This document shows, piece by piece, positions 24,056-50,764 of a stretch of 64,000 nt of DNA (positions within the stretch are counted from its first letter, which is position 1; the number at the start of each line of letters is the position of its first letter). Position numbers and translations under genes: made by a program. The stretch lies in contig CATQHT010000003.1 of assembly GCA_958296045.1 (NCBI GenBank), positions 2,666,814-2,730,813 of the forward strand, given 5' to 3'. This stretch comes from Rhodothermales bacterium. Lineage in GTDB: Bacteria > Bacteroidota > Rhodothermia > Rhodothermales > Bin80. The notes beneath the pieces are model-generated. The model did not search any database and was not told the DNA's origin. It was given only the letters and a program-made list of their open reading frames with translations.

Positions 24056-26368
24056 TCAAGAAAGTATGCTGCTCCCATGGCCATAGTCGCAACCAAGCCC
24101 TTCTCGATACGCTGCCGGCAGTATTTCGTACCCAAAGCAAATGGTGGATAGTCGCTCTAATCCGCGCCACATGATCTGAAAGCCGGGCGGTCCATCGCGA
24201 GTTCGATTCTGATAGCCGCCCATTACTGCTACTAGCAGAAGCGCCGCTTCCAGGGTGCGGGGTACCGGCAGCTTCACGTTCTTAGCATAAAAGGAGAGAG
24301 CAATCAACTGCATCGGGGAGAATATCAGCTCGGCATCTAATCCAGGGACGGCACGCCCCAGTAAGGTGAGCATCATGACATAGCAGGCGATCACGCAGTA
24401 CACCGCCAACCCACGTTCCAGGCGCGCTGCCGAACGCATCGCCATGCGTTCCACCTTACAGCCACTCTTGAGCACACGGAAAAAGTCTTCAACACGCCAT
24501 CGCCGGGTATAATAAGTCAGGATCTGCACCGCTTCTTCTGCGCTGTGCACCGCCATACTGGTCAGCAGATACCATTCCACCGCCTTCTCTCCCTTCGGGG
24601 GCGCGATCTCCCGGACATGCACGCCGTACATCGCTACGGATCCCCCTTGCCGCTGCGTGGCGGGCAGCTGTACGCAATGGTAGCGTACCTCGGCTCGGGC
24701 AATACGGTGACTACGTCCGTGGCGCACCTTCTTCCTGGAAGACTTCGGACGCGCCGTGACCCGTTGGATCTCTATCCGCACCTTCGCTGCGGCAGGACCG
24801 CTGCGAAGCGTCGCAAACAGCTTTTTATTCTTCGCCAGTCTCCGGTCATGACGGGCGCGGACCAGGAGTTCCACGCGATCCTGTGCCCGCTGGGCGGCAA
24901 ATAGCGCAAAGTTATCCGCCTCCCGGTCCATCACGCAGATGAGGCGACACTGCTTGGGAATCTCCTCTGCTGCTTCGCAGATGTCCAGAAATCCGTCTAA
25001 CCACTGCTGCGATCGAGGTTTGAGCGGTCCCGTATCTGGATCCCGATAACTACAACGTAATATCCCCAGGGGCAGGCCATCGGTAGTAGTAACCAGCGTG
25101 GCATGAAGGGGCATCCCACGGGATTTTGCTTTCGTCTGGTTGGTACCTATGACCTGCAAGTCTTCACAGGCGGGTCGCGTGCTGAAATTCAGCTTGGTGG
25201 TATCCTGTATGCAGAGTACCGCCTTCTGACTCCGTATCCGCTCAATCGTACGTTTGCGATGCGGCGCCAGCATGTTTTCGGGTGTTACGTCGGTCTGCTT
25301 GCTGCTCAGAAGCCGGTAATGGGCCTTCACCGCCGCCCTATCATGGCTTATATGGGAGCATATAGGCTTTCCTATCACATCGGCCAACAACGATGCGCTC
25401 TTCACCAGCCGCGTGGACAGCCGCCTGTCTCCCAGCGGAGCATCTCCGAACTCTGCCTCAACCCAGTCGTCCATGCCTTCGTGCGGTTGCCTGACCGGAC
25501 GCAGCGCCACCTCGGGTACGCCCAAGTACGAGCGCCACCGGCGGTCCACTTCGTACATGAACAAGGCCTTCGGCGCTTCTTCTTTGGAATGTGCGTGGCG
25601 CTTGCCCCCAGCAGTATAGCCGATGGACAGAAAATTGGCCGCCTTCAAGCACGTACCTTTCCATGGAGGTTCCACATACGTTTCTATCAACCAGGGGTGG
25701 TATCCATAAAGCGCATAACAGTCGTCAGATAACTGCTTCAACACCCTGCCGAGTACGTGACTGGCCAGGTATTTGCAAGTGCCGCGTATCAGAAAGCGGC
25801 TCAAACAGAAGATGCGGTGGAGGTGCGCTTGGCGTTGGGCATCGCTCCATGCCATGAAGTGTTCCCTTGCGGCCAAGCGCAAGGCCGGGGCGGAAAAACC
25901 TACCGCGCCCAGATATCCATGCGCGCTCACTACCAGGTACCGCAGCTGGGCACCAACAAGGGTGGTCGTACCACGAGGATGCTCATGGTGCAGCAGGGTA
26001 TTCCACACCGCACGCTGTGCTGCGGTCCGAACTCTTACTACTGCAAGACCTTCCACCTCACCCAAAGTCGCGGGCATCGCCACCGGTGGAGCAACCGCCT
26101 CGTCCAACAGGCGGGGCGACGCCTGCGCAGCATGATTGTTGAGCGGTGCTGGCAGTGTGATCTCACCCCGTGCCTCCAGCTTCAAGAGGGCTTTCGCGCA
26201 GGTAGCTACCTGTGCCCTGCCTTTGGCATCTACAAATCCAAAGTCCTCACATACACGGCGCGCAATCGCGGTGCGATTGGGAAGGCTCTCGTCAGAAAGC
26301 CTCTTCTTCAAGCGAATGCGCCCCCGGGGAGCACTGAGAGTCCGCAAAACCTGATTCTGCTCGAACAT
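24056..26368 (-). CDS. fusion transposase: N-terminal DUF4338 (DruA-like) domain + Tn5/IS4-type DDE transposase
   Basis: 770-aa intact ORF. The N-terminal part GAQLRYLVVSAHGYLGAVGFSAPALRLAAREHFMAWSDAQR...CLSRFLIR...GYHPWLIETYVEPPWKGTCLKAANFLSIGYTAGGKR fits my memory of the DUF4338 pattern. The C-terminal part has Tn5-like DDE regions (LCIQDTTKLNF, ICVMDREADNF, YYTRRWRVEDFFRVLKSGCKVE). Confidence 0.8.
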   Translation of the reverse strand: MFEQNQVLRTLSAPRGRIRLKKRLSDESLPNRTAIARRVCEDFGFVDAKGRAQVATCAKALLKLEARGEITLPAPLNNHAAQASPRLLDEAVAPPVAMPATLGEVEGLAVVRVRTAAQRAVWNTLLHHEHPRGTTTLVGAQLRYLVVSAHGYLGAVGFSAPALRLAAREHFMAWSDAQRQAHLHRIFCLSRFLIRGTCKYLASHVLGRVLKQLSDDCYALYGYHPWLIETYVEPPWKGTCLKAANFLSIGYTAGGKRHAHSKEEAPKALFMYEVDRRWRSYLGVPEVALRPVRQPHEGMDDWVEAEFGDAPLGDRRLSTRLVKSASLLADVIGKPICSHISHDRAAVKAHYRLLSSKQTDVTPENMLAPHRKRTIERIRSQKAVLCIQDTTKLNFSTRPACEDLQVIGTNQTKAKSRGMPLHATLVTTTDGLPLGILRCSYRDPDTGPLKPRSQQWLDGFLDICEAAEEIPKQCRLICVMDREADNFALFAAQRAQDRVELLVRARHDRRLAKNKKLFATLRSGPAAAKVRIEIQRVTARPKSSRKKVRHGRSHRIARAEVRYHCVQLPATQRQGGSVAMYGVHVREIAPPKGEKAVEWYLLTSMAVHSAEEAVQILTYYTRRWRVEDFFRVLKSGCKVERMAMRSAARLERGLAVYCVIACYVMMLTLLGRAVPGLDAELIFSPMQLIALSFYAKNVKLPVPRTLEAALLLVAVMGGYQNRTRDGPPGFQIMWRGLERLSTICFGYEILPAAYREGLGCDYGHGSSILS

Positions 26369-27091: not shown

Positions 27092-27797
27092 GTGCGCCAG
27101 GCTAACTGGTGCCAGTACAGGGAGTGAAAGTCTCCCGATGTGAAGGACTAACCATCCACGCATCTCCTCGAGCCGTGCGTCGGTACCCGCGAGGGTGCAG
27201 GCGAAGCGTCGGTAGAGGTGCGGGTGGGCAGGGCTAATGAGCACCGAAAATGTCATCGTCCGGGACGCCGAGGGTTTCTTCGTGGTCGAAGGCAACACCT
27301 TCTTTGCCGTTAATGGTGAGGCGGAGGAGGGTCCCGCGGTGTCCAAGAACCCAGGCACGCACGTACGTACTGCATCGGGACCTGGGAGGTCTCTCCACTA
27401 CCCATCCCTTCGGGGAGGGTCGCCAAAGCGTAGGCTAAATGCCGATCGGAGGATGTACGGTGGAGAGAAGTCAGATGCGACCATAGTAGCTATGAAGCCA
27501 GCGAACAACGCGTGGATGACCACGGGGCGGAGCCGGTGGAGCCAAGGGTCGCACCCAAGGGGAAAGCGGGAAGCTGGATTCATGCCGGACTCTGGGCTGG
27601 ATTACGTGGATCTGTCCAAGAGCTGTGGACTCAGTGCCACAGTCGGGGCGCAGGTGTACCGCTTACGGCTGGAGGTGGGGTTTCCCCACTTCCTAACGTC
27701 ATGCGCGGGAGCGCGACCTGCGGGAAGAGCCGTGTGCGTTAACGCGCACGCACGGATCTGTGCGGGGCCCCAGGGGAAACCCTGGGGCTACCGCGAT
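27092..27797 (+). mobile_element. group II intron, ORF-less (intron-encoded protein deleted)
   Basis: 5' GUGCGCC. Domain V is at 27727-27758 (GAGCCGUGUGCGUUAACGCGCACGCACGGAUC, with the AGC triad and AC bulge). Domain VI is GCCCCAGGG-GAAA-CCCUGGGGC with an unpaired A at 27790, 7 nt before the 3' end ..AU. Removal leaves the exons in frame. Confidence 0.8.
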
Positions 27798-29729
27798 GGC
27801 GCCATCTGCCGAGTTCCGCTGGTAGGCGGTCGCTGTGAGCAGCTGACCACGCGTCCTGGGCACTACTTCACTCCTCGGTTCAGCCCAGACGGGTCCAAAA
27901 TCGTGTACCAGCGCGGCACCGGCAATGCGCTGCGCGGCACCCTACACGGGACAGATCCCGGCCTATACTGGATGGCATCTGATGGCAGCGCGCCGCACCT
28001 GATCACCGAATCTGGTGCCGATCCGCGCTTCGATGCCACAGGGGAGCGCATATACTTTATGGCGGGCGGTGGCCTTGAAAAGGAGTACCGCAGCATCAGC
28101 CTGCACGGCGCCGAGCCACGGGTGCACTTTACGCTGAAGTATCCGGCCGAGGTGGTGCCAAGCCCTGACGGCACGCTGGTGGCTTTCACGGAGCTATTCA
28201 ACGCGTACGTTGCGGCCTTTCCGGCAACAGGCGGCCCGGTGGCGCTGGCGAAGGATACCAAGGCGATACCGGTCCACCAGGTCAGCCGAGATGCTGGGAC
28301 GAGTATTCACTGGACTGAGCGCGGATTGCACTGGGTGCTGGGTCCACGATACTTCACCCATGATGTGCGCGGCGGATTCCCGGTTAGCGGTGCCGACAGC
28401 ACCGGGGTGCCGATAGGGCTGGTGGCCGCGTCGGATAGGGTGACTGGAGCCGTGGCGTTTACGGGTGCACAGGTCGTCACTATGCGAGGTGACGAGGTGC
28501 TACAGGATGCGACCGTAGTGGTAGAGGGCTCTCGTATCATTGCGATAGGCGCCGACGTCTCTATCCCCGAAGGCGCCTTGGTGATCGATGCTGCGGGCCA
28601 GACCATTCTCCCGGGCATCATTGATGCACATGCGCATGCCAGCCACTTCGTCAGCGGTCCATTGCCCCAGGAGAACTGGGCTTATTTGGCCAACTTGGCC
28701 TATGGCGTCACTACGGCGCATGACCCGAGTGCCAGCACCGCTACGGTCTTCACGCAGAGCGAGATGGTACGGGCCGGGTTGTTGACGGGGCCGCGCATCT
28801 TTTCGACGGGGACGATCCTTTACGGGGCAGACGGTGACTTCAAGGCGGTGGTCAACAGCTTAGACGATGCTCGGAGCCACCTTCGTCGGATGCAGGCGGT
28901 AGGTGCCTTCTCCGTCAAGAGTTACAACCAGCCGCGCCGCAACCAGCGGCAGCAGATCGTGCAGGCGGCCAGGGAGTTGAAGATGAACGTGGTGCCGGAA
29001 GGGGGATCTACCTTTTTCCACAACATCACCATGATCCTGGACGGCCATACGGGAATCGAGCACAACCTGCCGGTGGCGCCACTGTACCAGGATGTGCTGC
29101 GGCTGTGGGCTGCCACCGAGGTCGGGTACACGCCGACCTTGGTGGTCAGCTACGGTGGATTGTCTGGAGAGTTCTTCTGGTACCAGCGGGACAACGTGTG
29201 GGAAGATGAGCGCCTTCTGACCTTCGTTCCGCGCGGCATCGTGGATGCTCGCAGCCGGCGGCGCCTGATGGCGGATGCGGACGACTATTTCTATCTGGAA
29301 GTTGCGCGGCAGACGAAGAAGCTGGTCGATCAGGGAAACATCGTGCAGGTCGGGGCGCACGGCCAGATGCAGGGCATCGCGGCGCACTGGGAATTATGGA
29401 TGTTGCACCAGGGCGGCATGACCTCGCACGAAGCGCTGCGCAGCGCGACGCTGCATGGTGCCCAATACCTGGGGTTGGATCATGAGCTGGGCTCACTGGA
29501 GCCGGGAAAGCTCGCCGACCTGATGGTTATTGACGGGGACCCATTGACAGACCTTTACCAGTCTGTCAATGTGGCGCAGGTCATGGTCAACGGGCGTCTG
29601 TACGATGCGCGCACCATGGATCAGATCGGCAACCATCCCGCGCCGCGAGGCTCGCTGTACTGGGAACGGCATGAGGTGAGCGAAGAGCTGCTCGATCACG
29701 GCCCGGCGTGTGTGTGCGGCCGCCACTAG
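27798..29729 (+). pseudogene. TolB-like propeller/amidohydrolase gene, segment 3 of 3 (amidohydrolase domain)
   Basis: GAICRVPLVGG...FSPDGSKIVYQRG, then the metal-dependent hydrolase motifs PGIIDAHAHASH, GSTFFHNITMILDGHTGIEH, GAHGQMQG and KLADLMVIDGDPL. The 830-aa ORF in the track begins inside the intron. Confidence 0.85.
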
Positions 29730-35962: not shown

Positions 35963-37546
35963 TTAGCGTGTGCGCATGGCCGTGCGCACTGCCTGATAGC
36001 GCCCGCCGCCAGCCGTTGCTATCACGAGGTAGTGGCCGCTGGGCAGGCGCGTAGCGTCCAGGTGCACTAGGTGACGTCCGCTGGGCAGGAAGCCTGAAAA
36101 AAGGACGGCGGCGGTGCGGCCTGCCACATCGTGCACTTTGATGGTCACGGACTGCGCCACCGGGTTGCTGAGCTCCAGTGTGGTGCGTTGGTTGAAGGGG
36201 TTGGGATAGGCGGCCCCCAGTGCAAAAGTGGCAAGCTGGGCAGGGGCTTTTGGGCTGGGGTCTTTTGCGGTGGTGCCGACCGGGTCGTATTTGAGCAGGT
36301 ACAGTCCGTGAAATGCGCTGGTAACCGCTACGGTGCCGCTTGCAAAGTAGGGGTAAGCCGTCCAGGCTCCGAAGTATCCGGCATGGTCGCTAAATGGATA
36401 CGTATCAAAGTAGGCGATCTCTACGGGTGCGGTCGGTGAGGAGATGTCCGCCATACGTAGGCCACTGGCGTAGTTGGCCATATACAGCGTATCTCCTTTA
36501 ATGTAGAGGTTGTGATCTGTGGCATCGGTCGGGCCGAAGTATTCTGCGGCGAGCACCGGGTCATCCAGGTCGGTCATATCCCAGATGAGTGTTCGAGTGC
36601 CGGGCAGGGGTGTCTCGCCCAGCCAGTGGCGCATGAGCTCATCGGTCTCATCGTTAAGGTAGAGGAAGGTATGGTCTTCACTCAGCCACGCCTGGTGGGC
36701 ATACGATGCGTCTGGATATTCCGCGCTGCTCAGTTTGCGCGGCTGTGATTTGTCGGAGACATCCGCGACGCTAATGCCGTCCACGTTGGCCAGGATACAA
36801 ATCTCCGAGCCGTCGTGGTCGGTGTCGGGTCCGTGGTACACCACGCACTGCACGTCATGGGTGTATCCAGAGGTGTTGTCGCCGAGGCTGGTATCGCGGT
36901 AGCATCCTGCGTAGGCGGGTTGCAAAGGATCAGTGATGTCCACCATATGCAGTGCTAAGGGGCAGGGGCCATTGTCTGATCCTACCACGTAGGCAAATCC
37001 GGTGGCGGTGTTAATAGCCACGTTATGGGCCTGGTCGAACAGATCGTAGTGAGCAGTTGCGACAAAGGTCTGAGGCGTGCTCGCGGGCGATCGCAGTTGC
37101 GTCAGATCAAAGACTTGCATGCCGTTGGTCCCATCCACATCCTGGACGACGAATACATGATCCTGGAACACTTTCAGGTCGCGCCATCCAGACGTGGAAT
37201 TGTCCTGCGAGGGTAGTTTGCCCAGGTATTCTGGGTTGATCGGGTCGGTGATATCCACGAAGGCCACCGCATTGACTGTGCCTACGAGCGCGTATTCATG
37301 GCCGTTGACTGAATCGGTCCATCCCCACATGTCTAGCACTTCGGGGGCTTCCAGCCGGTCCGGCATCAGCCTTGACAGGAGTGCCACATTGTGGCAGGCA
37401 TGCCCGGCTGCTTCGCCGCTGGTGCAGTTGACGCGGTTGCCCGTGATGGAGGGTTGTGCAGACGCTGGCATGCTCAGCAGCGCCCCAGCGAGCAATGTTG
37501 CGATAGGAGAGCGCACTTCGTTGAAGATGTTGAGCAAGGCAGCCAC
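35963..37546 (-). CDS. choice-of-anchor B / LVIVD-repeat beta-propeller protein with T9SS C-terminal domain
   Basis: Signal peptide. DMWGWTDSVNGHEYALVG, QVFDLTQLRSP and GLRMADISSPTAPVEIAYFDT. The C-terminus YPNPFNQRTTLELSNPVAQSVTIKVHDVAGR...GHYLVIATAGG is the sorting domain. It is a paralog of 49214-50764 and of the C-terminal half of 59678-61966. Confidence 0.8.
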   Translation of the reverse strand: MAALLNIFNEVRSPIATLLAGALLSMPASAQPSITGNRVNCTSGEAAGHACHNVALLSRLMPDRLEAPEVLDMWGWTDSVNGHEYALVGTVNAVAFVDITDPINPEYLGKLPSQDNSTSGWRDLKVFQDHVFVVQDVDGTNGMQVFDLTQLRSPASTPQTFVATAHYDLFDQAHNVAINTATGFAYVVGSDNGPCPLALHMVDITDPLQPAYAGCYRDTSLGDNTSGYTHDVQCVVYHGPDTDHDGSEICILANVDGISVADVSDKSQPRKLSSAEYPDASYAHQAWLSEDHTFLYLNDETDELMRHWLGETPLPGTRTLIWDMTDLDDPVLAAEYFGPTDATDHNLYIKGDTLYMANYASGLRMADISSPTAPVEIAYFDTYPFSDHAGYFGAWTAYPYFASGTVAVTSAFHGLYLLKYDPVGTTAKDPSPKAPAQLATFALGAAYPNPFNQRTTLELSNPVAQSVTIKVHDVAGRTAAVLFSGFLPSGRHLVHLDATRLPSGHYLVIATAGGGRYQAVRTAMRTR

Positions 37547-37705
37547 AACAATCCGTACGACGGTAGGCGGACCACACGCACGGCTACTGGACTTCTAATG
37601 GACCTTATATACGAAAATCGCCCTTTATGCACATGATTCTGCGCTGCAGCTGAGTATAGTGCTCTGTTTGAGCGGCACCAGGGACTCGGCATGCCCCAAG
37701 TTTTT

Positions 37706-38828
37706 TCAGTTCGTGGGGCTTCCCGCCTCTCGCAGGAGCATAGCGCCTCTGAAAATAATATTGATCGAGGCATACAGGTAACGACCAATAGCCTTTGCGC
37801 AACGATTGCACATGTACTTCCTTACCTGCAGCGTGATGTTCTCAGCGGGTAGTCGTCTGCAGCCACTATACTGTTGTTCAGCGACAATTAGAATTGCGGG
37901 GCGGCATGTGCACGAAGGTGCCCTCTCGCTCTGTTTTATAGGTAAGTGGTTGTATTACCAGCCCCAAGGCTTGGTCCAGTATGGTACGGTTCTGACCACG
38001 CTTGCGAGCGCCCCCATTGCGGGTCAGGTTGGCATCCTGCAGGTCTTCGCATGCAACGGTGCCGGTCTCCCAATCGATATCCGCTGTGATGTTGGGTCCC
38101 GTTGCATTGCGGTGCGATCCTGAAGGATTCCCTGTATCCAGCTACCTTGGCCTTCTCCCTGTACTTGCTTTTTCCTGAGTGCACGTCATCCTGCGTGGCC
38201 ACTTGATGCCCTTGCGTTCATCCGAACGTAAGGGCACGTACTGCACGCCCTTGTGCCACGTGCAATGAGCCTTCAGGCCAGGATCGATGCCAATAGGTCT
38301 GTCCTCGCACGACCCTTCGGCTAAGACTTCCTGCTCGTAGATTACCTGTACCTCAATGCCGCTGCTAACCGGAATGCGCTTTGTCCGCACATGTCTTACC
38401 GGGACATCGTTTCAAGAGGTCGCAGTAGTCGTCAAAGTACAGCTTGTCGACACGCTTCACCTGACCGACCACTTGCCGTTTTGCTCCTGCTGCACTTCCT
38501 GCTGTTCGAAGGTGATGACGTACTCGCCAAACCTGGGAAATTTGCCCAATGGCTTGAGAGCCTGCGTCTAGCCTCTTCAAACCCGACGACCCACACTCCA
38601 CTGCGCCCTACGTGCAAAGCTGGCTTCATAGTCCGGTCCTTTGACCAATATCTTCAGCCACCTGCACGGGTCATAGTCACTCAGACGCTTTTCGCCCTGC
38701 CTATACCGGGCCTAGCAATACCCCTTCATCTGGTCGTGCAGCGACCTCAGGTGGCTCCAGTAATGGCCAAGCTCGGCTCGTTTGGCCTTACTTAGTCCGG
38801 TGACACGATAGGTCCGCGTCTTCACCAT
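37706..38828 (-). pseudogene. TnpB (IS200/IS605 OrfB, RNA-guided nuclease family), multiply frameshifted
   Basis: Pieces across frames: MVKTRTYRVTGLSKAKRAELGHYW, RPIGIDPGLK, GKSKYREKAKVAG, ARKRGQNRTILDQALG..YKTEREGTFVHMPPRNSNCR, YMCNRCAKAIGRYLYASINIIFRG. No intact frame and no adjacent tnpA. Confidence 0.65.
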
Positions 38829-39011
38829 GCTAAGGCGTCCAACGATCACATCGCACCAGAGCACCATGGTCCTGTCAGTTGATACACATAATTCCCAGGT
38901 AAGGACGAATAGCTAGGGGCTATCTCACGCCTGCCTTGGAGTAGCCTTCTTGACAAGCCAAGCCGTAGCCAATCTCCTCGTCTGGATGAGTAGGCGCGCT
39001 GCAGATCTAGC

Positions 39012-39527
39012 CTACAGGCGCGTGGCCTGCTCCAGATAAAAATAAATCCCTGCTATTACGCCGATGGCGGAGATGACCGAGAATCCGATACCGATCAGCC
39101 ATTTGGTCAAGCGAAACTGCCTATCGGTCATCTGCATTAATGTGGTAAGCTGGTTTTGTTGGGCATCGAACTTGGTAGTCATCTCCGCTTTCTGAGCATC
39201 GAACTTGGTAGTCATCTCCGCTTGCTGGGCATCCAACTTGGCAGTTACCTCCGCTTTATGGGCGTCGAACTTGGTAGTTATTTCTGTCCTAAGCGCAGCT
39301 ATCTGGGCATCGAACTTGGTAGTCATTTCTGTCCTAAGCGCAGCTATCTGGGCATTTAGGGCCTCTAATTTCGTTTCGAAGCGGTGAATGAGCTTGGCGG
39401 AAGCCATCTTTTCCAAGAGCTTGATCAGTAGGTGAGCGTCTCGTCCGCTGCTGCCGGAACGTCGGAGAAGGTCGAAAAGTAGCGCGCCGTCAGGATCCTG
39501 GTGTCCGCTGTGTTGGTCGTCGGGCAA
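39012..39527 (-). CDS. tail-anchored coiled-coil protein (DUF1640-like), array copy 1, 171 aa
   Basis: ALLFDLLRRSGSSGRDAHLLIKLLEK, then two 15-residue and three 11-residue repeats (Q[KQ]AE[MV]T[TA]K[FL]DA), then the C-terminal TM LIGIGFSVISAIGVIAGIYFYL. This copy has a TTG start. Confidence 0.7.
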   Translation of the reverse strand: MPDDQHSGHQDPDGALLFDLLRRSGSSGRDAHLLIKLLEKMASAKLIHRFETKLEALNAQIAALRTEMTTKFDAQIAALRTEITTKFDAHKAEVTAKLDAQQAEMTTKFDAQKAEMTTKFDAQQNQLTTLMQMTDRQFRLTKWLIGIGFSVISAIGVIAGIYFYLEQATRL

Positions 39528-39731
39528 GCATGCTCTCTACCGTCAGCAGCAACGGTGGTTCCGCAGCGTGGACAAGCCAATGTGGTGAATCCAACGGTGC
39601 TGCGTATATCCACGCAAAACGGCCAGTGGGTCCGACGGAATTCTGCCACCTGATCCGAGATATATCTACCCCTGGCTGCATCCTGGTCAGGGTGCGTATG
39701 ATGATCTGCCAGAAGGGCGAAATGGGGCAGG

Positions 39732-40115
39732 TTATATCGGGTCACTGCTGGCTATCGCGGGAATGGCGGGCCCTTCTGTGGTGCGCTGCCAAAGTACGGC
39801 TTCATTGGGACGCGTCACACACTGTGATAGCCGAACAGGGCAAGGCATCGGTGTTGTTCTGCCGTTGGAAGGGGGGCTTGCGGGCGAATCTGACACATCA
39901 TAATGCGGCTCCAGAAGGAAAAACATCGCCAGCGAAGCCAAAGACGCCAGGAGGCCCCCGGCCACAGTCACCGCAAGCCCCCACAAGAAGTCTCCCCCGT
40001 CAGGTAACACCAGAAGCGGCAGCATGGCAGCTGCCACCGAGGCGAGCGCGGCCTTGCTTAGTCCGGCGACACCATAGGTCTGCGTCCTCACCATGCCAAG
40101 GTGTCCAACGATCAC
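39732..40115 (-). CDS. possible small 2-TM membrane protein whose first ~15 codons derive from tnpB (array copy 1, stop lost)
   Basis: MVRTQTYGVAGLSKAA (compare tnpB MVKTRTYRVTGLSKAK), then LASVAAAMLPLLVL and LWGLAVTVAGGLLASLASLAMFFLL. Coding status is uncertain. Confidence 0.25.
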   Translation of the reverse strand: MIVGHLGMVRTQTYGVAGLSKAALASVAAAMLPLLVLPDGGDFLWGLAVTVAGGLLASLASLAMFFLLEPHYDVSDSPASPPSNGRTTPMPCPVRLSQCVTRPNEAVLWQRTTEGPAIPAIASSDPI

Positions 40116-40280
40116 ATCCGCACCTGAGTACCATGATCCTGTCAGCTGGCAAACTATAATTCCCAGGTAACGACCAATAGCTGGGGGCTATCTCACGCTT
40201 ATCTTGGAGTAGCCTTCTTGACAAGCCAAGCCGCAGCCAATCTCCTCGTCTGGATGAGTTAGGCGCGCTGCAGACCTAGC

Positions 40281-40763
40281 CTACAGGCGCGTGGCTTGCT
40301 CCAGGTAAAAGTAAATTCCTGCTATCACGCCGATGGCGGAGATGACCGAGAATCCGATACCGATCAGCCATTTGGTCAAGCGAAACTGCCTATCGGTCAT
40401 CTGCATTAATGTGGTAAGCTGGTTTTGTTGGGCATCGAACTTGGCAGTCATCTCCGCTTTCTGGGCATCCAACTTGGCAGTTACCTCCGCTTTCTGGGCA
40501 TCGAACTTGGTAGTTATTTCTGTCCTAAGCGCGGCTTTCTGGGCATCGAACTTGGTAGTTATCTCTGCCCTAAGCGCAGCTATCTGGGCATTTAGGGCCT
40601 CTAATTTCGTTTCGAAGCGGTGAATGAGCTTGGCGGAAGCCATCTTTTCCAAGAGCTTGATCAGTAGGTGAGCGTCTCGTCCGCTGCTGCCGGAACGTCG
40701 GAGAAGGTCGAAAAGTAGCGCGCCGTCAGGATCCTGGTGCTCGCTGTGTTGGACGTCGGACAT
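40281..40763 (-). CDS. tail-anchored coiled-coil protein (DUF1640-like), array copy 2, 160 aa
   Basis: Same architecture as copy 1 with two 11-residue repeats. ATG start. Confidence 0.75.
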   Translation of the reverse strand: MSDVQHSEHQDPDGALLFDLLRRSGSSGRDAHLLIKLLEKMASAKLIHRFETKLEALNAQIAALRAEITTKFDAQKAALRTEITTKFDAQKAEVTAKLDAQKAEMTAKFDAQQNQLTTLMQMTDRQFRLTKWLIGIGFSVISAIGVIAGIYFYLEQATRL

Positions 40764-41093
40764 GCATGCTCTCTACCGTCAGCAGCAACGGTGGCTCCGC
40801 AGCGTGGACATACCAATGTGGTGAATCCAAAGGTGCTGCGTATATCCACGCAAAACGACCAGTGGGTCCGACGGAATTCTGCCACCTGGTCCGAGATATA
40901 TCTACCCCTGGCTGCATCCTGGTCAGGGTGCGTATGATGACCTGCTAGAAGGGCGATATGGGGCAGGTTATATCGGGTCACTGCTGGCTATCGCGGGAAT
41001 GGCGAGCCCTTCTGTGGTGCGCTGCTAAAGTACGGCTTCATTGGGACGCGTCACACACTGTGATAGCCGAACATGGCAAGGCATCGGTGTTGT

Positions 41094-41351
41094 TCAGCCG
41101 TTGGAAGGGGGGCTTGCGGGCGAATCTGACACATCATAATGCGGCTCCAGAAGGAAAAACATCGCCAGCGAAGCCAAAGCCGCCAGGAGGCCCCCGGCCA
41201 CAGTCACCGCAAGCCCCCACAAGAAGTCTCCCCCGTCAGGTAACACCAGAAGCGGCAGCATGGCAGCTGCCACCGAGGCGAGCGCGGCCTTGCTTAGTCC
41301 GGCGACACCATAGGTCTGGGTCCTCACCATGCCAAGGTGTCCAACGATCAC
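41094..41351 (-). CDS. possible small 2-TM membrane protein (array copy 2, 85 aa)
   Basis: Same as 39732-40115 but ends ...SPPSNG*. The unit-3 counterpart (42255-42570) needs a frameshift. Confidence 0.3.
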   Translation of the reverse strand: MIVGHLGMVRTQTYGVAGLSKAALASVAAAMLPLLVLPDGGDFLWGLAVTVAGGLLAALASLAMFFLLEPHYDVSDSPASPPSNG

Positions 41352-41516
41352 ATCCGCACCTGAGTACCATGATCCTGTCAGCTGGCAAACTATAATTCCC
41401 AGGTAACGACCAATAGCTGGGGGCTATCTCACGCTTATCTTGGAGTAGCCTTCTTGACAAGCCAAGCCGCAGCCAATCTCCTCGTCTGGATGAGTTAGGC
41501 GCGCTGCAGACCTAGC

Positions 41517-41966
41517 CTACAGGCGCGTGGCTTGCTCCAGGTAAAAGTAAATCCCTGCTATCACGCCGATGGCGGAGATGACCGAGAATCCGATACCGAT
41601 CAGCCATTTGATTAAGCGAAACTGCCTATCGGTCATCTGCATTAATGTGGTAAGCTGGTTTTGTTGGGCATCGAACTTGGCAGTTACCTCCGCTTTATGG
41701 GCATCGAACTTGGTAGTTATTTCTGTCCTTAGCGCAGCTATCTGGGCATCGAACTTAGTAGTCATCTCTGTCCTTAGCGCAGCTATCTGGGCATTTAGGG
41801 CCTCTAATTTCGTTTCGAAGCGGTGAATGAGCTTGGCGGAAGCCATCTTTTCCAAGAGCTTGATCAATAGGTGAGCATCTCGTCCGCTGCTGCCAGACCG
41901 CCGGAGAAGGTCGAAAAGTAGCGCGCCGTCAGGATCCTGGTGCTCGCTGTGTTGGTCGCCGGACAT
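41517..41966 (-). CDS. tail-anchored coiled-coil protein (DUF1640-like), array copy 3, 149 aa
   Basis: Same architecture with one 11-residue repeat. The N- and C-terminal parts are nearly identical to copies 1 and 2, although the flanking DNA is much more diverged. Confidence 0.75.
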   Translation of the reverse strand: MSGDQHSEHQDPDGALLFDLLRRSGSSGRDAHLLIKLLEKMASAKLIHRFETKLEALNAQIAALRTEMTTKFDAQIAALRTEITTKFDAHKAEVTAKFDAQQNQLTTLMQMTDRQFRLIKWLIGIGFSVISAIGVIAGIYFYLEQATRL

Positions 41967-42665
41967 GCATGCCTTCTACCGTCAGCAGCAATGGTGGTTC
42001 CGTAGCGTGGACAAGCCAATGTGGTGAATCCAAAGGTGCAGCGTATTTCCATGCAAAACGACCAGTGGATCCGATTCAATGCGGCCACCTGATCCGAGAT
42101 ATATCGACCACTGGCTGCATCCTGTTCGGGGTACGTAGGATGATCTGCCAGATGGGCAGGTTGGGGCAAGTTGTATCGGGTCACTATTCGCTATCGCGCG
42201 TGTTGGCGGACCCCTCTCTGGTGCGCTGCCAAAATACAGCTTCATTGGGACGCGTCACACACTGTGATAGCCGAACAGGGCAAGGCCTCGGTGTTGTTCA
42301 GCCGTTGGAAGGGACACTTGCGGGCGAATATGGCACACCCAGCCGCGGCCGCAGAAAAGATAACATCGCCACCAAAGCCAGAGGCGACAGGAGCGTGGAC
42401 GCCAGGAGTCCCCAGTCACAGTCATCGCGAGGCCCCCATCCCCCATGGAGAAGTCGCCCTCGTCCAGAAACACCAGAAGCAGCAGCATGGCAACCACCGA
42501 GGCGATCGTGGCGGCTTTGCGTCCTGCCATCCAGCTTTCTGTCAGGGTCACCACACCCGGAACGGACCACCGGGCAGGATAAGTCCCAGCCCTCTGGCCT
42601 GAGCGCCAGGAATGCTCAAATCGGAACCAACAGACGCGGAAGGGGAGGCCCCTATGTAAGCCAGC

Positions 42666-45600
42666 CTACACCGACGCTTCCTGCGAGGCCGAGGTGCGCC
42701 CGAAGGTGCGCCCCCGCCAAAGGTAAAAGACTACGGGAATCACAAAGAGACACAACACCGTTGCGGAAATCATGCCCCCCACCATGGGCGCCGCCACACG
42801 CTGCATGACCTGTGACCCGGTGCCATGCCCCCACATCAATGGAAGAAGTCCTGCAACCACCGTGATCACCGTCATCAGGACCGGCCGCAGGCGCCAGGTC
42901 GTGCCTGCAATGACCGCCTCCCTCAGATCCTGCATGCTGCTCATGCGGCCTTCGGCTTCTCTAGATTCACACGCACGATGCAGGTAGGTCAGCATCAGCA
43001 CGCCCAGCTCAGCTGCCAGGCCCGCCAGCGCCAACAGACCAACGCCCACCGCCACACTTAGCGCATAGTCCAGAAGGTGTAACAGCCATATGCCGCCTGC
43101 CAAAGCGAATGGCAGCGATAACATGACCATAAGGCACTCGGCCAGACGACCGAAATTCAGGTACAACAGCAGCAGAATGATCAGCAACGTGACGGGTACC
43201 ACAATCCGCAGTCGCGCCTCGGCCCGCTGCATGTATTCAAACTGCCCGCTCCACATCAGGCTGTAGCCGTCGGGCAAATCCACAGCGGCAGCGACAGCGC
43301 GCTGGGCCAGCGACACGTACGTCCCTACATCAGTGTCCCGAATGTCCACATAAACCCATGCGGTACGGCGCGCATTCTCGCTCCGGATCACAGGCGGTCC
43401 CGCAACATAGTCGAATGCGGCTACATAGCTGAGCGGAATGCGCGCCCCGTGCGGCGTGTCAATGAGCATCCGACCTATCGCCTCTGGCGTGCTGCGCAGA
43501 TCACGGCTGTAACGTACGCTGACCGGATAGCGCTCAAGGCCTTCTACCGTACGTGTCACGTTCGAGCCGCCAGCGGCAGACATAATAACTTCTTGGACAT
43601 CAGCAACAGCAAGCCCGTAGCGAGCTGCCTCCTCACGGTTGATCGTAAAGTCCAGAAAGTTGCCGCCCAGCGTCTTGTCCGCAAAAGCACTGGCCGTGCC
43701 AGGCACCCCGCTCAGTGCCGCAACAACCTCCTGGCCGAGCGCGGCCAAAACCTCAGGGTCTGGACCCATAATCTTGACACCTACGGGAGTCTTGATGCCG
43801 GTCGACAACATGTCCGTCCGAGCTTTGATCGGCATAGTCCATGCATTGGTCAACCCGGGGAAAGCGATCGCCTGATCCAGCTCCTCCACGAGGCGCTCGT
43901 GCGTCATGCCCTCTGGCCACTGACTCCTGGGTTTGAGCCTGATAGTGGACTCAATCATAGATAAAGGAGCAGGGTCCGTGGCGGTTTCCGCACGCCCAGC
44001 CTTACCTAACACATGTTCCACCTCTGGAAAGGAGGCGATGATCCGGTCCGTCTGCTGAAGCAGCTCCTTGGCTTTGGTGATGCTGATGCCAGGATCCGTA
44101 GTCGGCATATAAAGCAAGTCCCCCTCGTCAAGGGGAGGCATAAACTCGGAGCCAAGCCTGCTGAGTGGATAGGCGGTAGATGCCAGCACCAGCACGGCGC
44201 CCGCTAAGACGAGCCAGCGCCGCCGGAGCGCCACTCGGATCAGGGGCCCATAGATAAAAGCGAGTAGCCGGTGAATGGGATTCCTTGCAGCTGGCGTGAG
44301 CGAGCCCCGAACGAAGTACCCGACCAGCACAGGCACCAACGTCACCGCCAGAAGCGCAGCCGCCGCCATAGCATACGTCTTCGTGTACGCCAGCGGACCA
44401 AACAGGCGTCCCTCCTGGGCCTGCAGCGCAAAAACAGGCAGGAACGATAGCGTAATGATCAACAGAGAATAGAAAAGCGGCGGACCCACCTCCTTAGCAG
44501 CACCGGCCACCACAGACCAGTGGTCCTTTTGTCTGCTGCTAAGCGCGAGATGGCGATGCGCGTTTTCCACCATCACGATGGCCCCGTCCACCATGGCGCC
44601 GATAGCGATGCCGATCCCGCTTAGCGACATGATGTTGGCGTTGAGCCCCTGAAAATGCATTGCCAGAAATGCCAACAGAATCCCAAGCGGCAGCGAAAGG
44701 AGAACAACGAGCGTGCAGCGCACACTTAGCAGAAAAAGCATGACCACCACCGCCACCATGAGGCATTCCTCCAGAAGCTTGCGCTTGAGGTGGTCAATGG
44801 CGCTAAGGATGAGCCCGCTGCGGTCATAGGCCGCCCGAATGGTGACACCAGGAGGCAGGCCATCCTCCAGCGCCGCAAGCCGCTCTTTGACGGCTTCAAT
44901 AGTCTCCAGCGTGTTGGCGCCGTGGCGCATCACTATGATGCCCCCCACGACCTCACCTTCGCCGTTGAAGTCCGCCACCCCGCGCCGAAGCTCGGGCCCC
45001 ACCTGGACACGAGCCACATGACGGACCAGTATCGGGATGCCCCGATCGTCCACACCCACGGCAGTCTGCTCAATGTCTTCCACGGACCGGATATAGCCCA
45101 GACCACGCACCATAAATTCCGATTCTCCTATCTCGATGAGCCGCCCGCCCACATCACTGTTGCTGCGCTCTAGGGCGCTGCGCACTGCCCGGAGCGATAC
45201 CCCGTACGCCTGGAGCCGGTTGGGATCCACCTCGACCTGATATTGCTTGACGAAGCCACCCAATGAAGCCACCTCGGCCACGCCCTCCACGCTCATCAAC
45301 TCATAACGCAGAAACCAGTCCTGTATAGAGCGCAGCTGCTGAAGGTCGTACCGGTTGCCTCCTTCGAGCACGTATTCGTAGATCCAGCCCACGCCCGTGG
45401 CGTCCGGGCCCAAGGTAGGCGTGACGCCCTGCGGCAAGCGGCTCGCCACGACGTTGAGGTATTCTAGGACGCGCGAGCGTGCCCAGTACAAATCGGTGCC
45501 GTCTTCGAAAATGATGTAAACAAAAGACACCCCGAAGAAAGAGTAGCCCCGTACCGTTTTGGCATAGGGTACCGAAAGCATGGCCGTGGTGAGCGGATAC

Positions 45601-45797
45601 GTGACAAGATCTTCGACCACCTGCGGCGCCTGCCCCGCAAACTCCGTGTGGATGATTACCTGTACATCCGAAAGGTCCGGGATAGCATCGACGGGGGTGC
45701 GCAGCATTGCATACACACCGCCCAGTCCCGCCAGAAGTGCGAAGATCAGGACCACGAAGCGGTGCCTGACCGAGGCCTCTATAATATGGTGCAACAT
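42666..45797 (-). CDS. CusA/CzcA-family heavy-metal efflux RND pump
   Basis: 1043 aa. 12-TM RND architecture with two large periplasmic loops. The family-typical N-terminus is MLHHIIEASVRHRFVVLIFALLAGLGG. Last gene of an OMP-adaptor-pump operon. Confidence 0.9.
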   Translation of the reverse strand: MLHHIIEASVRHRFVVLIFALLAGLGGVYAMLRTPVDAIPDLSDVQVIIHTEFAGQAPQVVEDLVTYPLTTAMLSVPYAKTVRGYSFFGVSFVYIIFEDGTDLYWARSRVLEYLNVVASRLPQGVTPTLGPDATGVGWIYEYVLEGGNRYDLQQLRSIQDWFLRYELMSVEGVAEVASLGGFVKQYQVEVDPNRLQAYGVSLRAVRSALERSNSDVGGRLIEIGESEFMVRGLGYIRSVEDIEQTAVGVDDRGIPILVRHVARVQVGPELRRGVADFNGEGEVVGGIIVMRHGANTLETIEAVKERLAALEDGLPPGVTIRAAYDRSGLILSAIDHLKRKLLEECLMVAVVVMLFLLSVRCTLVVLLSLPLGILLAFLAMHFQGLNANIMSLSGIGIAIGAMVDGAIVMVENAHRHLALSSRQKDHWSVVAGAAKEVGPPLFYSLLIITLSFLPVFALQAQEGRLFGPLAYTKTYAMAAAALLAVTLVPVLVGYFVRGSLTPAARNPIHRLLAFIYGPLIRVALRRRWLVLAGAVLVLASTAYPLSRLGSEFMPPLDEGDLLYMPTTDPGISITKAKELLQQTDRIIASFPEVEHVLGKAGRAETATDPAPLSMIESTIRLKPRSQWPEGMTHERLVEELDQAIAFPGLTNAWTMPIKARTDMLSTGIKTPVGVKIMGPDPEVLAALGQEVVAALSGVPGTASAFADKTLGGNFLDFTINREEAARYGLAVADVQEVIMSAAGGSNVTRTVEGLERYPVSVRYSRDLRSTPEAIGRMLIDTPHGARIPLSYVAAFDYVAGPPVIRSENARRTAWVYVDIRDTDVGTYVSLAQRAVAAAVDLPDGYSLMWSGQFEYMQRAEARLRIVVPVTLLIILLLLYLNFGRLAECLMVMLSLPFALAGGIWLLHLLDYALSVAVGVGLLALAGLAAELGVLMLTYLHRACESREAEGRMSSMQDLREAVIAGTTWRLRPVLMTVITVVAGLLPLMWGHGTGSQVMQRVAAPMVGGMISATVLCLFVIPVVFYLWRGRTFGRTSASQEASV

Positions 45798-49213: not shown

Positions 49214-50764
49214 CTACCGCACCAGCGCCACCGGCAGTGTGTGTGCATGTGCCCCTGAGCTGGCCCGGATGAAGTAGGTCCCGCTCACTAGGTTGCCAGC
49301 GTCAAAGGCCAGCCGGTGTCGTCCCTTTGTCAATTCGCCCGTGTGCAAGACCGCGATCTCCCGCCCAGCGGTATCAAAGACGCGCACATCCATCGTCCGC
49401 TCCTTCAGGAGGGATAGAGACACGTTAAGGACCGGATTGAATGGGTTGGGGTATGCGTCATGCAGCATGAATGAGCCGGGCGGGGCCTCCAGCAACGCAG
49501 CCGGCATCCCAAGAGTCTTTGTACTAAGCATGAATAGGCCCTCAGGTGAGCTGCTGACCAGCACTGTGCCGCTGGGCAGGAATGGATAGGCTGTCCAGGC
49601 GCCCCAGAACCTGAGGTCATCGTTTTCTGGGTGTGTGTCGAAGTAGGCGACCTCTTGCGGAGTCGCAGGGTCGGCCACGTCAAGGATGCGCAGCCCAGAC
49701 GTATAGTTGGCCATGTATACGTATTGGCCAGCGACGTACAAGTTGTGGTCGATCGATCGGGCTTGTCCCCAGTACTCGGTAAGGATCACCGGATCATCTA
49801 GGTCTTCCACGTCCCAGATAAGCGTCCGTGTACCTTCGCCGCGGCCGCCATCACGCAGCAGGTTGCGCTCATCGAGCTCATCGTTCTGCACCACGTACCG
49901 GTGGTCGGGCGTCAGCCATCCCTGGTGGGCATAAGACACATCTGGATAATCTGAGCGCGCGATGGCGACCGGCGCCGCCTTGTCGGTGACGTCAGCGATG
50001 CTGATGGCGTTTTCGTTGAAGCCGATGCAGATTTCGCGTCCAGCATGGTCTGTATCCGGTCCGTCATAGATCACGCACTGTGCATCATGCGTGTATCCGC
50101 TGCTGCCGCGGCCAGTAGAGTAGTCTCTGTAGCAGCCGGCATACTTGGGCTTGAGCGGGTCCCTGATGTCGATCATATGGAGCCCCAGGGAGCAGTCGTT
50201 ATAGTTGCCGTACCGGCTACCCACGGCATAGGCAAAGCCGGTGGCCTCATTGATCACAATGTTATGGGCTCGCCCTATACGGTCGTAGTGCGCGTCCGCA
50301 TCGAATTCGTAGGGCCTTGTTGGGGGCGACAGCAGCCGGCTGAGGTCAAAGATCTGCATGCCATTGCGCCCGGCGCCGTCCACGACCACGAACATGTGGT
50401 CCTTATAGACCTTCATGTCGCGCCAGACGGAAGTCGATTGCCAGTCCTGTGAAGGAAGCAGACCGATATACTCAGGATTGAGCGGGTCGGTGACCTCCAC
50501 GAAGGCTACATGCTCAAAGGTGCCGACTAGCGCAAACTCCCGCCCTGAGGACGGGTCTGCCCAGCCCCAAACGTCATTAAGGTAGTTAGCATCGCCGAGC
50601 TCTGCGGGAATGATCCTAGAAAGCAGCGTGACCTCGTTGCAGCTAAAGCCGCGCACGTGGCCATTGATGCATTCGAGCTCGGTGCCGGTGATGGACTGCA
50701 GCTGTTGCCCTGCCGCGGGCGTGAGCGCGGTAAGGCCCATAAGCAGTGCAAAAGGCAGTTTCAT
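49214..50764 (-). CDS. choice-of-anchor B / LVIVD-repeat beta-propeller protein with T9SS C-terminal domain
   Basis: Paralog of 35963-37546: DVWGWADPSSGREFALVG, QIFDLSRLLSP and GLRILDVADPATPQEVAYFDT. C-terminus YPNPFNPVLNVSLSLLKERTMDVRVFDTAGR...GTYFIRASSG. Confidence 0.8.
   Translation of the reverse strand: MKLPFALLMGLTALTPAAGQQLQSITGTELECINGHVRGFSCNEVTLLSRIIPAELGDANYLNDVWGWADPSSGREFALVGTFEHVAFVEVTDPLNPEYIGLLPSQDWQSTSVWRDMKVYKDHMFVVVDGAGRNGMQIFDLSRLLSPPTRPYEFDADAHYDRIGRAHNIVINEATGFAYAVGSRYGNYNDCSLGLHMIDIRDPLKPKYAGCYRDYSTGRGSSGYTHDAQCVIYDGPDTDHAGREICIGFNENAISIADVTDKAAPVAIARSDYPDVSYAHQGWLTPDHRYVVQNDELDERNLLRDGGRGEGTRTLIWDVEDLDDPVILTEYWGQARSIDHNLYVAGQYVYMANYTSGLRILDVADPATPQEVAYFDTHPENDDLRFWGAWTAYPFLPSGTVLVSSSPEGLFMLSTKTLGMPAALLEAPPGSFMLHDAYPNPFNPVLNVSLSLLKERTMDVRVFDTAGREIAVLHTGELTKGRHRLAFDAGNLVSGTYFIRASSGAHAHTLPVALVR

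Follow-up and report, generated by a model that had tools for sequence, protein, structure and literature searches.

The 64-kb window analysed here (64,000 nucleotides (nt), positions 2,666,814 to 2,730,813 of contig CATQHT010000003.1 in the Rhodothermales bacterium assembly GCA_958296045.1) contains a tandem array of three head-to-tail units, with their genes on the minus strand, lying between cusA and a decayed tnpB. Each unit carries one copy of a gene referred to here as A, which encodes a small protein with a repetitive stalk and a C-terminal transmembrane (TM) helix, together with a second, doubtful open reading frame (ORF) referred to as C. The array was delimited by a repeat search, Tandem Repeats Finder (TRF) and self-BLAST of the whole window, whereas the anatomy of the unit was taken from a three-way alignment, to which all column numbers below refer. 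A previous reading of the letters alone, hereafter the sequence-only reading, had proposed three head-to-tail units of about 1.24 kb between a metal-efflux operon and a dead tnpB, an arrangement confirmed by self-BLAST and the repeat search. Matches between units are far longer than expected by chance, with neighbouring units being 90% identical and U1 and U3 82% identical by self-BLAST, and neither this search nor the repeat search found a fourth copy elsewhere in the window. The main features of the locus are the following.

38784-40049, minus strand: unit 1 (U1), 1266 nt, promoter-distal, running on into the tnpB relic
40050-41285, minus strand: unit 2 (U2), 1236 nt, a mosaic that is U1-like in alignment columns 1-971 and U3-like in columns 1000-1296
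41286-42512, minus strand: unit 3 (U3), 1227 nt, adjoining cusA and keeping the original left-hand flank
39012-39527, minus strand: gene A1, 171 amino acids (aa), TTG start, two 15-residue and three 11-residue repeats, C-terminal TM helix
40281-40763, minus strand: gene A2, 160 aa, identical to database protein P0001, two 15-residue and two 11-residue repeats
41517-41966, minus strand: gene A3, 149 aa, identical to database protein P0002, two 15-residue repeats and one 11-residue repeat
40050-40280 (U2) and 41286-41516 (U3), minus strand: post-A flank with a copy of the tnpB upstream region and of tnpB codons 1-15
38784-39011 (U1), minus strand: the original of that segment, with the true tnpB upstream flank and the first 15 codons of the relic
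39732-40115 (U1), minus strand: C-like ORF, tnpB codons 1-15 fused to the C frame, stop codon lost
41094-41351 (U2) and 42255-42570 (U3, frameshifted, two frames), minus strand: counterparts of the C-like ORF
40764-41093 (U2), minus strand: non-coding spacer of about 330 nt upstream of A2, with equivalents in U1 and U3
37650-38828, minus strand: decayed tnpB relic with several stops and frame changes
42666-45797, minus strand: cusA-like resistance-nodulation-division (RND) pump gene, the upstream same-strand neighbour of the array

Read along the minus strand, the order is cusC-cusB-cusA (with ACR_tran, HlyD_D23 and OEP domains), U3, U2, U1 and the tnpB relic. In the direction of transcription, each unit comprises the C-like ORF (columns 1-215), a spacer of about 334 columns from the C stop to the A start, gene A (columns 550-1065), a post-A flank of about 187 columns and 45 nt of tnpB. 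The stretch from the A stop to the end of the unit thus covers about 232 columns, in agreement with the previous proposal that some 230 bp per unit are homologous to the 5′ end and upstream flank of tnpB; the original of this segment is found in U1.

The copy number of three rests on the assembly and on the differences that are specific to each unit. In this regard, an expanded or chimeric repeat, or a mixture of strains within a metagenome-assembled genome (MAG), has to be considered, since about 500 bp around each junction are more than 99% identical between copies, a risk for short-read assemblers, and a contig from an independent metagenome (L001) breaks inside the repeat. Such an artefact is nevertheless hardly credible. 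Every unit has private substitutions (16 such sites in U2) and its own number of 11-residue repeats, overall divergence between the units amounts to 10-18%, A2 and A3 were deposited as proteins from a single 2.88-Mb contig, and the arrangement of U1 next to tnpB is reproduced in L001 itself.

The origin of the array is recorded at its junctions. Those between U3 and U2 and between U2 and U1 are identical, reading ...GGACTAAGCAAGGCC followed directly by GCGCTCGCC, and the parental sequences are still present at the two ends of the array, ...GCAAAGCC continuing into GCCACG (left flank into U3) and ...AGTAAGGCC continuing into AAACGA (U1 into tnpB). The parents have only GCC in common, inside an imperfect AA[AG]GCC, which points to an illegitimate, microhomology-mediated tandem duplication as the founding event.

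40050-40052 (U2/U1 junction) and 41286-41288 (U3/U2 junction), minus strand: GCC microhomology

The junction falls after codon 15 of tnpB and after codon 6 of the C frame, so that tnpB 15/16 is joined to C 6/7; the previous suggestion that it lies inside both tnpB and an ancestral C gene therefore holds, with the same sequence at both junctions.

This position in tnpB raises the question of whether the amplification was associated with an insertion sequence (IS), as the sequence-only reading had it. The tnpB copy itself is clearly degenerate. A three-frame translation of 38870-37500 gives TnpB-like pieces (IGIDPGL, ...ASINI...) split by several stops and frame changes, none of the single fragments matches Pfam, and the stitched translation aligns with positions 91-386 of the NCBIfam profile guided_TnpB (NF040570) at E = 8e-12 and 45 bits, under a cut-off of 100. 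The stitched translation also aligns with the Cas12f1-like TNB zinc ribbon (E = 3.5e-4) and reaches 21.1 bits with PF07282, whose cut-off is 26.3, and no close homologue of it was found. Scores below the curated TnpB cut-offs and an interrupted ORF fit a relic rather than a functional gene. Moreover, L001 carries the same relic, also interrupted early, and we read it as old and dead. An 18-nt motif, GCTATTGGTCGTTACCTG, occurs four times against 0.01 expected.

37775-37792 (tnpB 3′ end), 38896-38913, 40164-40181 and 41400-41417 (upstream of the tnpB 5′ copies), minus strand: 18-nt motif

In U2 and U3 the motif matches the copy at the 3′ end of tnpB exactly, the copy attached to tnpB itself has two mismatches, and within the units the motif sits in the loop of a CCCAG/CTGGG hairpin; it probably belongs or relates to the IS ends. 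A driving role of the element, either through TnpB/TnpA activity, through recombination at IS ends or with A as IS cargo, could find an argument in the fact that every unit carries the tnpB upstream region, including this motif shared with the 3′ end, and that the junction is located in tnpB. We regard it as quite improbable, as the junction lies 45 nt inside the coding sequence, at the GCC microhomology and not at an IS end, the units have no right end, and the heavily decayed tnpB, present as a relic in the strain of L001 too, is without close homologues. In addition, a second A subfamily (contig L006) and a distant relative (contig L005) also form tandem arrays, with no tnpB-derived sequence seen in these short contigs. 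What remains of the proposed association is thus adjacency, and the IS is a bystander, with nothing tying it mechanistically to the duplication.

The units did not arise in one step. The term threefold amplification, used previously, has to be replaced by more than one event, since the middle unit is a recombinant mosaic. Classification of the variable columns showed that, up to column 971, U2 agrees with U1 at 87 sites and with U3 at only nine, whereas from column 1000 on it agrees with U1 at a single site and with U3 at 27 (Fisher p = 1.7e-18 for the switch). The switch point lies between columns 971 and 1020, in the TM-coding end of A. Compared with its counterparts, U2 shows 3 differences in 488 positions at its ends and 26 in 751 in its middle part (p = 8e-4). 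The mosaicism of U2 is shown directly by these counts; the order of events given next is an inference. A GCC-mediated illegitimate duplication would first have copied in tandem a segment of 1.23 kb, beginning at codon 7 of a non-functional ORF that lies downstream of cusA, taking in gene A and ending at codon 15 of the adjacent tnpB. An unequal homologous crossover in the misaligned two-unit array (U3-U1) would then have generated the third, middle unit; a mosaic with a U1-derived 5′ part and a U3-derived 3′ part is exactly what such an exchange should yield. In the simplest account, a later single conversion tract of about 500 bp across the junction would have re-homogenised the unit ends, and slippage or unequal exchange among the 33-nt repeats inside A could have left the 11-residue repeat (hendecad) counts at 3, 2 and 1.

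Divergence within the unit is uneven, as noticed previously, and this is still evident in the proper three-way alignment. Between U1 and U3, identity is 78.8% in C (plus 26 gap columns), 87.6% in the spacer, 95.4% in A, 90.8% in the post-A flank and 86.7% in the tnpB 5′ fragment.

39838-40049 (U1), 41094-41285 (U2) and 42298-42512 (U3), minus strand: C region as compared for divergence

Selection on A was assessed by Nei-Gojobori pairwise counts, with site classes contrasted by Fisher tests. A1 and A3 show 16 synonymous differences in 103 sites (pS 0.155, dS 0.174) and six non-synonymous ones in 344 (dN 0.018), which gives an omega (dN/dS) of 0.10, the values for A2-A3 and A1-A2 being 0.18 and 0.28. 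In the first 40 codons of A2 and A3, the seven nucleotide differences reported previously (columns 557, 560, 615, 618, 621, 639 and 649) are indeed found in the alignment, two of them changing codons 3-4 and the other five being synonymous. On the other hand, the A copies are not almost identical, as had been written, but differ by whole 33-nt (11-codon) repeats. Either purifying selection or gene conversion acting on A only had been invoked for its conservation. Conversion confined to A would preserve the similarity of its copies as the remainder of the unit diverged, and it could draw on A being the best-conserved part of the unit (95.4% between U1 and U3, with flanks at 79-91%), on the nearly identical ends of U2, which indicate that conversion does happen in this array, and on a paralogue from outside the window, P0004, bearing the C-terminus of the other subfamily. 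The divergence of synonymous sites in A is, however, statistically equal to that of the pooled non-coding parts (64/559 = 0.114; p = 0.25) and not below it, the depletion is limited to non-synonymous sites, about sevenfold below the non-coding level (p = 1e-8), and the tracts that were homogenised span the junction, at the ends of the units, and do not cover A. Conversion of A alone is in consequence unlikely and is not needed. With synonymous sites at the non-coding level and a deficit confined to non-synonymous ones, A is conserved by ordinary purifying selection, and the uneven divergence arises because only the amino-acid sequence of A is conserved, with the rest of the unit drifting at about the synonymous rate. 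Altogether, these comparisons show that the A protein sequence is the only part of the unit under selection (omega 0.1-0.3).

No comparable constraint exists in the C frame. In U1 and U2, the C ORFs begin MVRTQTYGVAGLSKA, to be compared with MVKTRTYRVTGLSKA in tnpB, and U3 has MAGRKAATIASV, which agrees with the observation in the sequence-only reading that the C frame of the first two units starts with about 15 codons of tnpB. That reading had also seen C as a possible mini-gene with two TM segments. A real gene of this kind, amplified together with A and acting with it, could be suspected from the ORFs of 85-127 aa with two hydrophobic stretches in U1 and U2, which gained their start codon from tnpB. 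It is nonetheless very unlikely: omega is 0.87 and 1.9 in the two halves of the frame, the U3 copy has insertions of 9 and 14 nt and a 3-nt deletion, with the 14-nt insertion shifting the frame, the stop codon is lost in U1, and no homologue, and not so much as a self-hit, was found among 5.8 billion proteins, nor any homologue in a fetched locus. From the lack of a database self-hit it also follows that the source annotation did not call C. The C frame is not a maintained gene.

Similarly, the spacer, which the sequence-only reading had listed as about 330 bp of apparently non-coding DNA per unit, gave no sign of coding constraint in any of the six frames. A 106-aa ORF open in all three units, with a CxxC-like motif, was considered and rejected, its omega being 1.06-1.18 and a cysteine being lost in U3. 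Searches for non-coding RNA yielded only chance matches in the E-value mode of Rfam and folding z-scores from 0 to +0.8, and promoter and terminator scans stayed at or below shuffle expectation. The first 85 nt or so of the spacer show an unusually low divergence, about 6%. Between the two A subfamilies, conservation extends only over some 50 nt upstream of A, the last part of the spacer, and some 45 nt downstream.

The three A proteins differ in length (171, 160 and 149 aa) by whole 33-nt hendecad repeats. Their stalk is built from two modules of 15 residues (IAALRTEITTKFDAQ) plus three, two or one of 11 residues (KAEMTTKFDAQ), the hendecad count rising 1, 2, 3 along the array from A3 through A2 to A1.

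39160-39355 (A1), 40429-40591 (A2) and 41698-41794 (A3), minus strand: internal 33-nt and 45-nt tandem repeats

They lack a signal peptide. Their N-terminus is hydrophilic, DPDGALLFDLLRRSGSSGRDAHLLIKLLEKMASAKLI is a conserved segment in the N-terminal part, and a hydrophobic segment, WLIGIGFSVISAIGVIAGIYFYL, is located at the C-terminus. An AlphaFold2 (AF2) monomer model consists of a helix at residues 12-23 and one continuous helix at 28-170, with a pLDDT of 92.7; the sequence-only reading had already described A as a tail-anchored coiled-coil gene. Three positively charged residues (R, R and K) come ahead of the TM helix, and the protein is most likely tail-anchored in the inner membrane, with the short helical head and the stalk of about 100 residues in the cytoplasm. 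A Foldseek search of the model, essentially one long helix, against the PDB found nothing. Direct family assignment failed as well, with only sub-threshold coiled-coil noise from Pfam, NCBIfam, PADLOC and PDB sequence searches, while PHROGs returned weak matches to small families of unknown function.

Indirect evidence places A in a known family. An exhaustive profile search collected 528 relatives of the same architecture at E <= 1e-3; scans of genome and metagenome contigs with the A alignment found no relative. Among 41 sampled relatives, 11 match PF07798 (CCDC90-like, formerly DUF1640), with a best E of 1.2e-11. P0011, the nearest relative from outside, aligns with A1 over the full length (38% identity over 161 residues, BLASTP E = 5e-34) and reaches 35.9 bits with PF07798, above the gathering score of 33.5, in agreement with its precomputed Pfam assignment. 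Through such relatives passing the Pfam threshold, transitive homology makes A a divergent member of the DUF1640 superfamily, and we assign it on these sequence comparisons to a divergent branch of the DUF1640/CCDC90-like family. The DUF1640 family has been described as comprising integral membrane proteins, prokaryotic as well as mitochondrial, whose stalk begins with a beta-layer motif of the form [aliphatic]-A-T-K-[polar]-[DE] (PMC4786415), and its eukaryotic members MCUR1, CCDC90B and Put6/Put7 are matrix-facing, hetero-oligomeric scaffold proteins (PMC7519068); Adlakha (2019) is cited in the latter work for the conservation of DUF1640 in prokaryotes and organelles. At the position of the beta-layer, A reads M-A-S-A-K-L (residues 41-46), with M41-A42 invariant in the close family and an MA consensus in the 41 relatives. 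By analogy with its DUF1640 relatives, A may oligomerise through a coiled coil with hendecad/pentadecad periodicity, and it probably forms a homo- or hetero-oligomeric scaffold like that of MCUR1/CCDC90B, in which the number of repeats would set the length of the stalk. To our knowledge, prokaryotic DUF1640/CCDC90-like proteins have no known function.

The gene is not restricted to the array in the window. Four further database proteins, P0003-P0006 (162, 151, 173 and 140 aa; 63-69% identity), are built from one 15-residue module and two to five 11-residue modules and form the second subfamily. They appear to be encoded on the same genome as A2 and A3 (P0001 and P0002), which would bring the number of paralogues to seven; this, together with the purifying selection on the copies of the window, supports the previous description of A as a maintained series of paralogues. 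The genomic arrangement of P0003-P0006 was inferred from L006 alone, a 642-bp contig that belongs to the second subfamily and was obtained from the metagenome of L001. Its ends overlap exactly over 55 nt, giving a period of 587, as is typical of a head-to-tail array that has been collapsed; genes are separated by only about 165 nt, and neither C nor tnpB sequence is present. One member of this subfamily, P0004, has the TM/C-terminal sequence of the window subfamily (GIGFSVISAIGVIAGI..), a chimera that suggests recombination between the two arrays. A third case is provided by L005, the contig of the distant relative P0011, with three tandem copies spaced by 484 and 449 nt. The second of them (1003-1437) has a degenerate N-terminus and the third (1551-1667) is only a fragment, so that such arrays also decay.

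All seven paralogues differ in length (140, 149, 151, 160, 162, 171 and 173 aa), and one may ask whether the series was selected as a length ladder, with paralogues of different hendecad number kept for their different stalk lengths, in the manner of the variable Bdr proteins of Borrelia. Seven lengths in seven paralogues, a count that rises regularly along the array and purifying selection on every copy would speak for this possibility. It remains doubtful, since the A gene of L001, which contains orthologues of U1 and tnpB at 1-2% divergence, has exactly one hendecad fewer than A1, and a ladder would thus not be conserved even between such close strains; the probability of all counts differing by chance is not small either (about 0.1 by a rough estimate), and the family has no known function. 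A change of count at 1-2% divergence means that the number of repeats changes fast relative to point substitution.

Taken together, the data make it probable that this is a three-copy array with A as its only functional cargo, shaped by duplication, unequal crossover and purifying selection. Several points weigh against parts of this picture. The three-step history is the simplest reading and not the sole one, as repeated expansion and contraction of the array would yield similar mosaics. The C region diverges between U1 and U3 by 21%, plus several indels, compared with 11% for the other non-coding parts (p = 0.0014), a faster pace that is not accounted for by a strictly uniform neutral rate. 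The oligomeric state and topology of A are predicted from family membership and sequence, and its expression is putative. The 171-aa product of A1 is missing from the protein collection that holds A2 and A3. The start of A1 is TTG (39525-39527, minus strand), in contrast to the ATG of A2, A3 and the L001 orthologue; its expression or translation may be weak, or the gene may simply be unannotated. Regarding the family, A3 scores 15.3 bits with PF07798 (E = 0.019), below the gathering score, and A1 and A2 give no match to it at E <= 1, for which reason membership rests on transitive homology. Furthermore, the beta-layer motif is only partial in A, with T, K and D/E not conserved.

With respect to the neighbourhood, the common orientation of cusCBA and the A genes would allow read-through transcription. 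A functional link is not indicated; relatives of cusA occur without A genes, none being found downstream of cusA in the closest species representatives (69%-identical cusA; Rhodothermales/Bacteroidota MAGs), and relatives of A are found in unrelated gene contexts. Two paralogous LVIVD-repeat proteins with C-terminal sorting domains of the type IX secretion system (T9SS), at 35963-37546 and 49214-50764 (both minus strand), bracket the tnpB relic, the A array and cusCBA, and the block between them may be an insertion between duplicated genes.

Other features of the window lie apart from the array. At 27127-27797 on the plus strand, Rfam gives strong hits to group II intron domains, D1-D4 (168 bits) and V/VI, which overlap the 5′ end of a PD40/amidohydrolase ORF (27237-29729); no reverse-transcriptase ORF is evident and the region may be an ORF-less group II intron. 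On the minus strand, a 770-aa ORF at 24056-26368 is DruA-like in its N-terminal region and also has the DNA-binding, DDE and dimerisation domains of a Tn5-type transposase, and another ORF, at 11288-12949, has Schlafen AlbA_2 and HATPase_c_4 domains, an architecture frequent in putative transcriptional regulators or defence-island genes.

Compared with known systems, the evolution of the array follows standard tandem-array mechanics, without need for a new mechanism. It shares with generic arrays under concerted evolution a single novel junction that is repeated, a mosaic middle unit, a homogenised tract and changes in copy-internal repeats; nothing essential differs, except that the founding event happened here to capture the left end of an IS and 15 tnpB codons. 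The locus can in this sense be seen as a textbook case, in which duplication at a microhomology, unequal crossing-over, conversion across the junction and selection for a single real gene are found together. The relic itself resembles a tnpB-only element of the IS200/IS605 type in its guided_TnpB alignment, its TNB zinc ribbon and the 18-nt motif upstream and at the 3′ end, but differs in its sub-cut-off scores, its stops and frameshifts, and in having no demonstrable role in the amplification.

Like members of the DUF1640/CCDC90-like family (human MCUR1 and CCDC90B, yeast Put6/Put7), the A protein has a small N-terminal head, followed by a long coiled-coil stalk and, at the C-terminus, one TM helix, with its conserved MA.. 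at the head-stalk boundary, where DUF1640 proteins have the beta-layer motif. It departs from them in the near-perfect 11- and 15-residue repeats of the stalk, whose number varies between paralogues and strains, and in the presence of what appear to be seven paralogues in one small genome, in tandem arrays. This lineage-specific expansion, recurrently tandem and with stalk lengths changing in exact 11-residue steps, offers a natural length series for testing the role of the stalk.

If DUF1640/CCDC90-like proteins are the closest family by homology, the closest by behaviour are the Bdr proteins of Borrelia, a large set of paralogues (18 genes in B. burgdorferi) located at the inner membrane (PMC2525819) and of unknown function (PMC3303823). 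Both have a head with a G-[FS]-S...A motif, central 11-residue repeats in variable number and a C-terminal hydrophobic anchor. A displays the further Bdr-type features of 33-nt repeats of variable number and multi-copy paralogues differing by multiples of 11 residues, and the different counts of A1 and its L001 orthologue parallel the strain-level changes of Bdr, where the repeats of bdrT number about 9 and 6 in two strains at 99.4% identity (PMC3303823). A differs in being chromosomal, in a Rhodothermales-like free-living bacterium, and in forming head-to-tail arrays, whereas bdr genes are dispersed on plasmids and prophages. Membership of A in the Bdr family is not supported: no A protein matches the KID repeat (PF02524), for which the Bdr control BBP34 gives E = 8.6e-21, and hhalign of the A-family alignment with BBP34 reaches a probability of 54% over only 34 columns, at the boundary between repeats and TM segment. 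The bolder proposal, that a free-living Rhodothermales-like bacterium has a Bdr-like system of its own, in which DUF1640-type proteins with hendecad-diversified stalks, encoded in tandem arrays, have been selected at seven lengths as molecular spacers, is a tentative one that we would not favour; if true, it would suggest that Borrelia Bdr is a branch of the DUF1640/MCUR1 family. The A family provides in any case a non-spirochaete parallel to the unexplained Bdr family of Borrelia.

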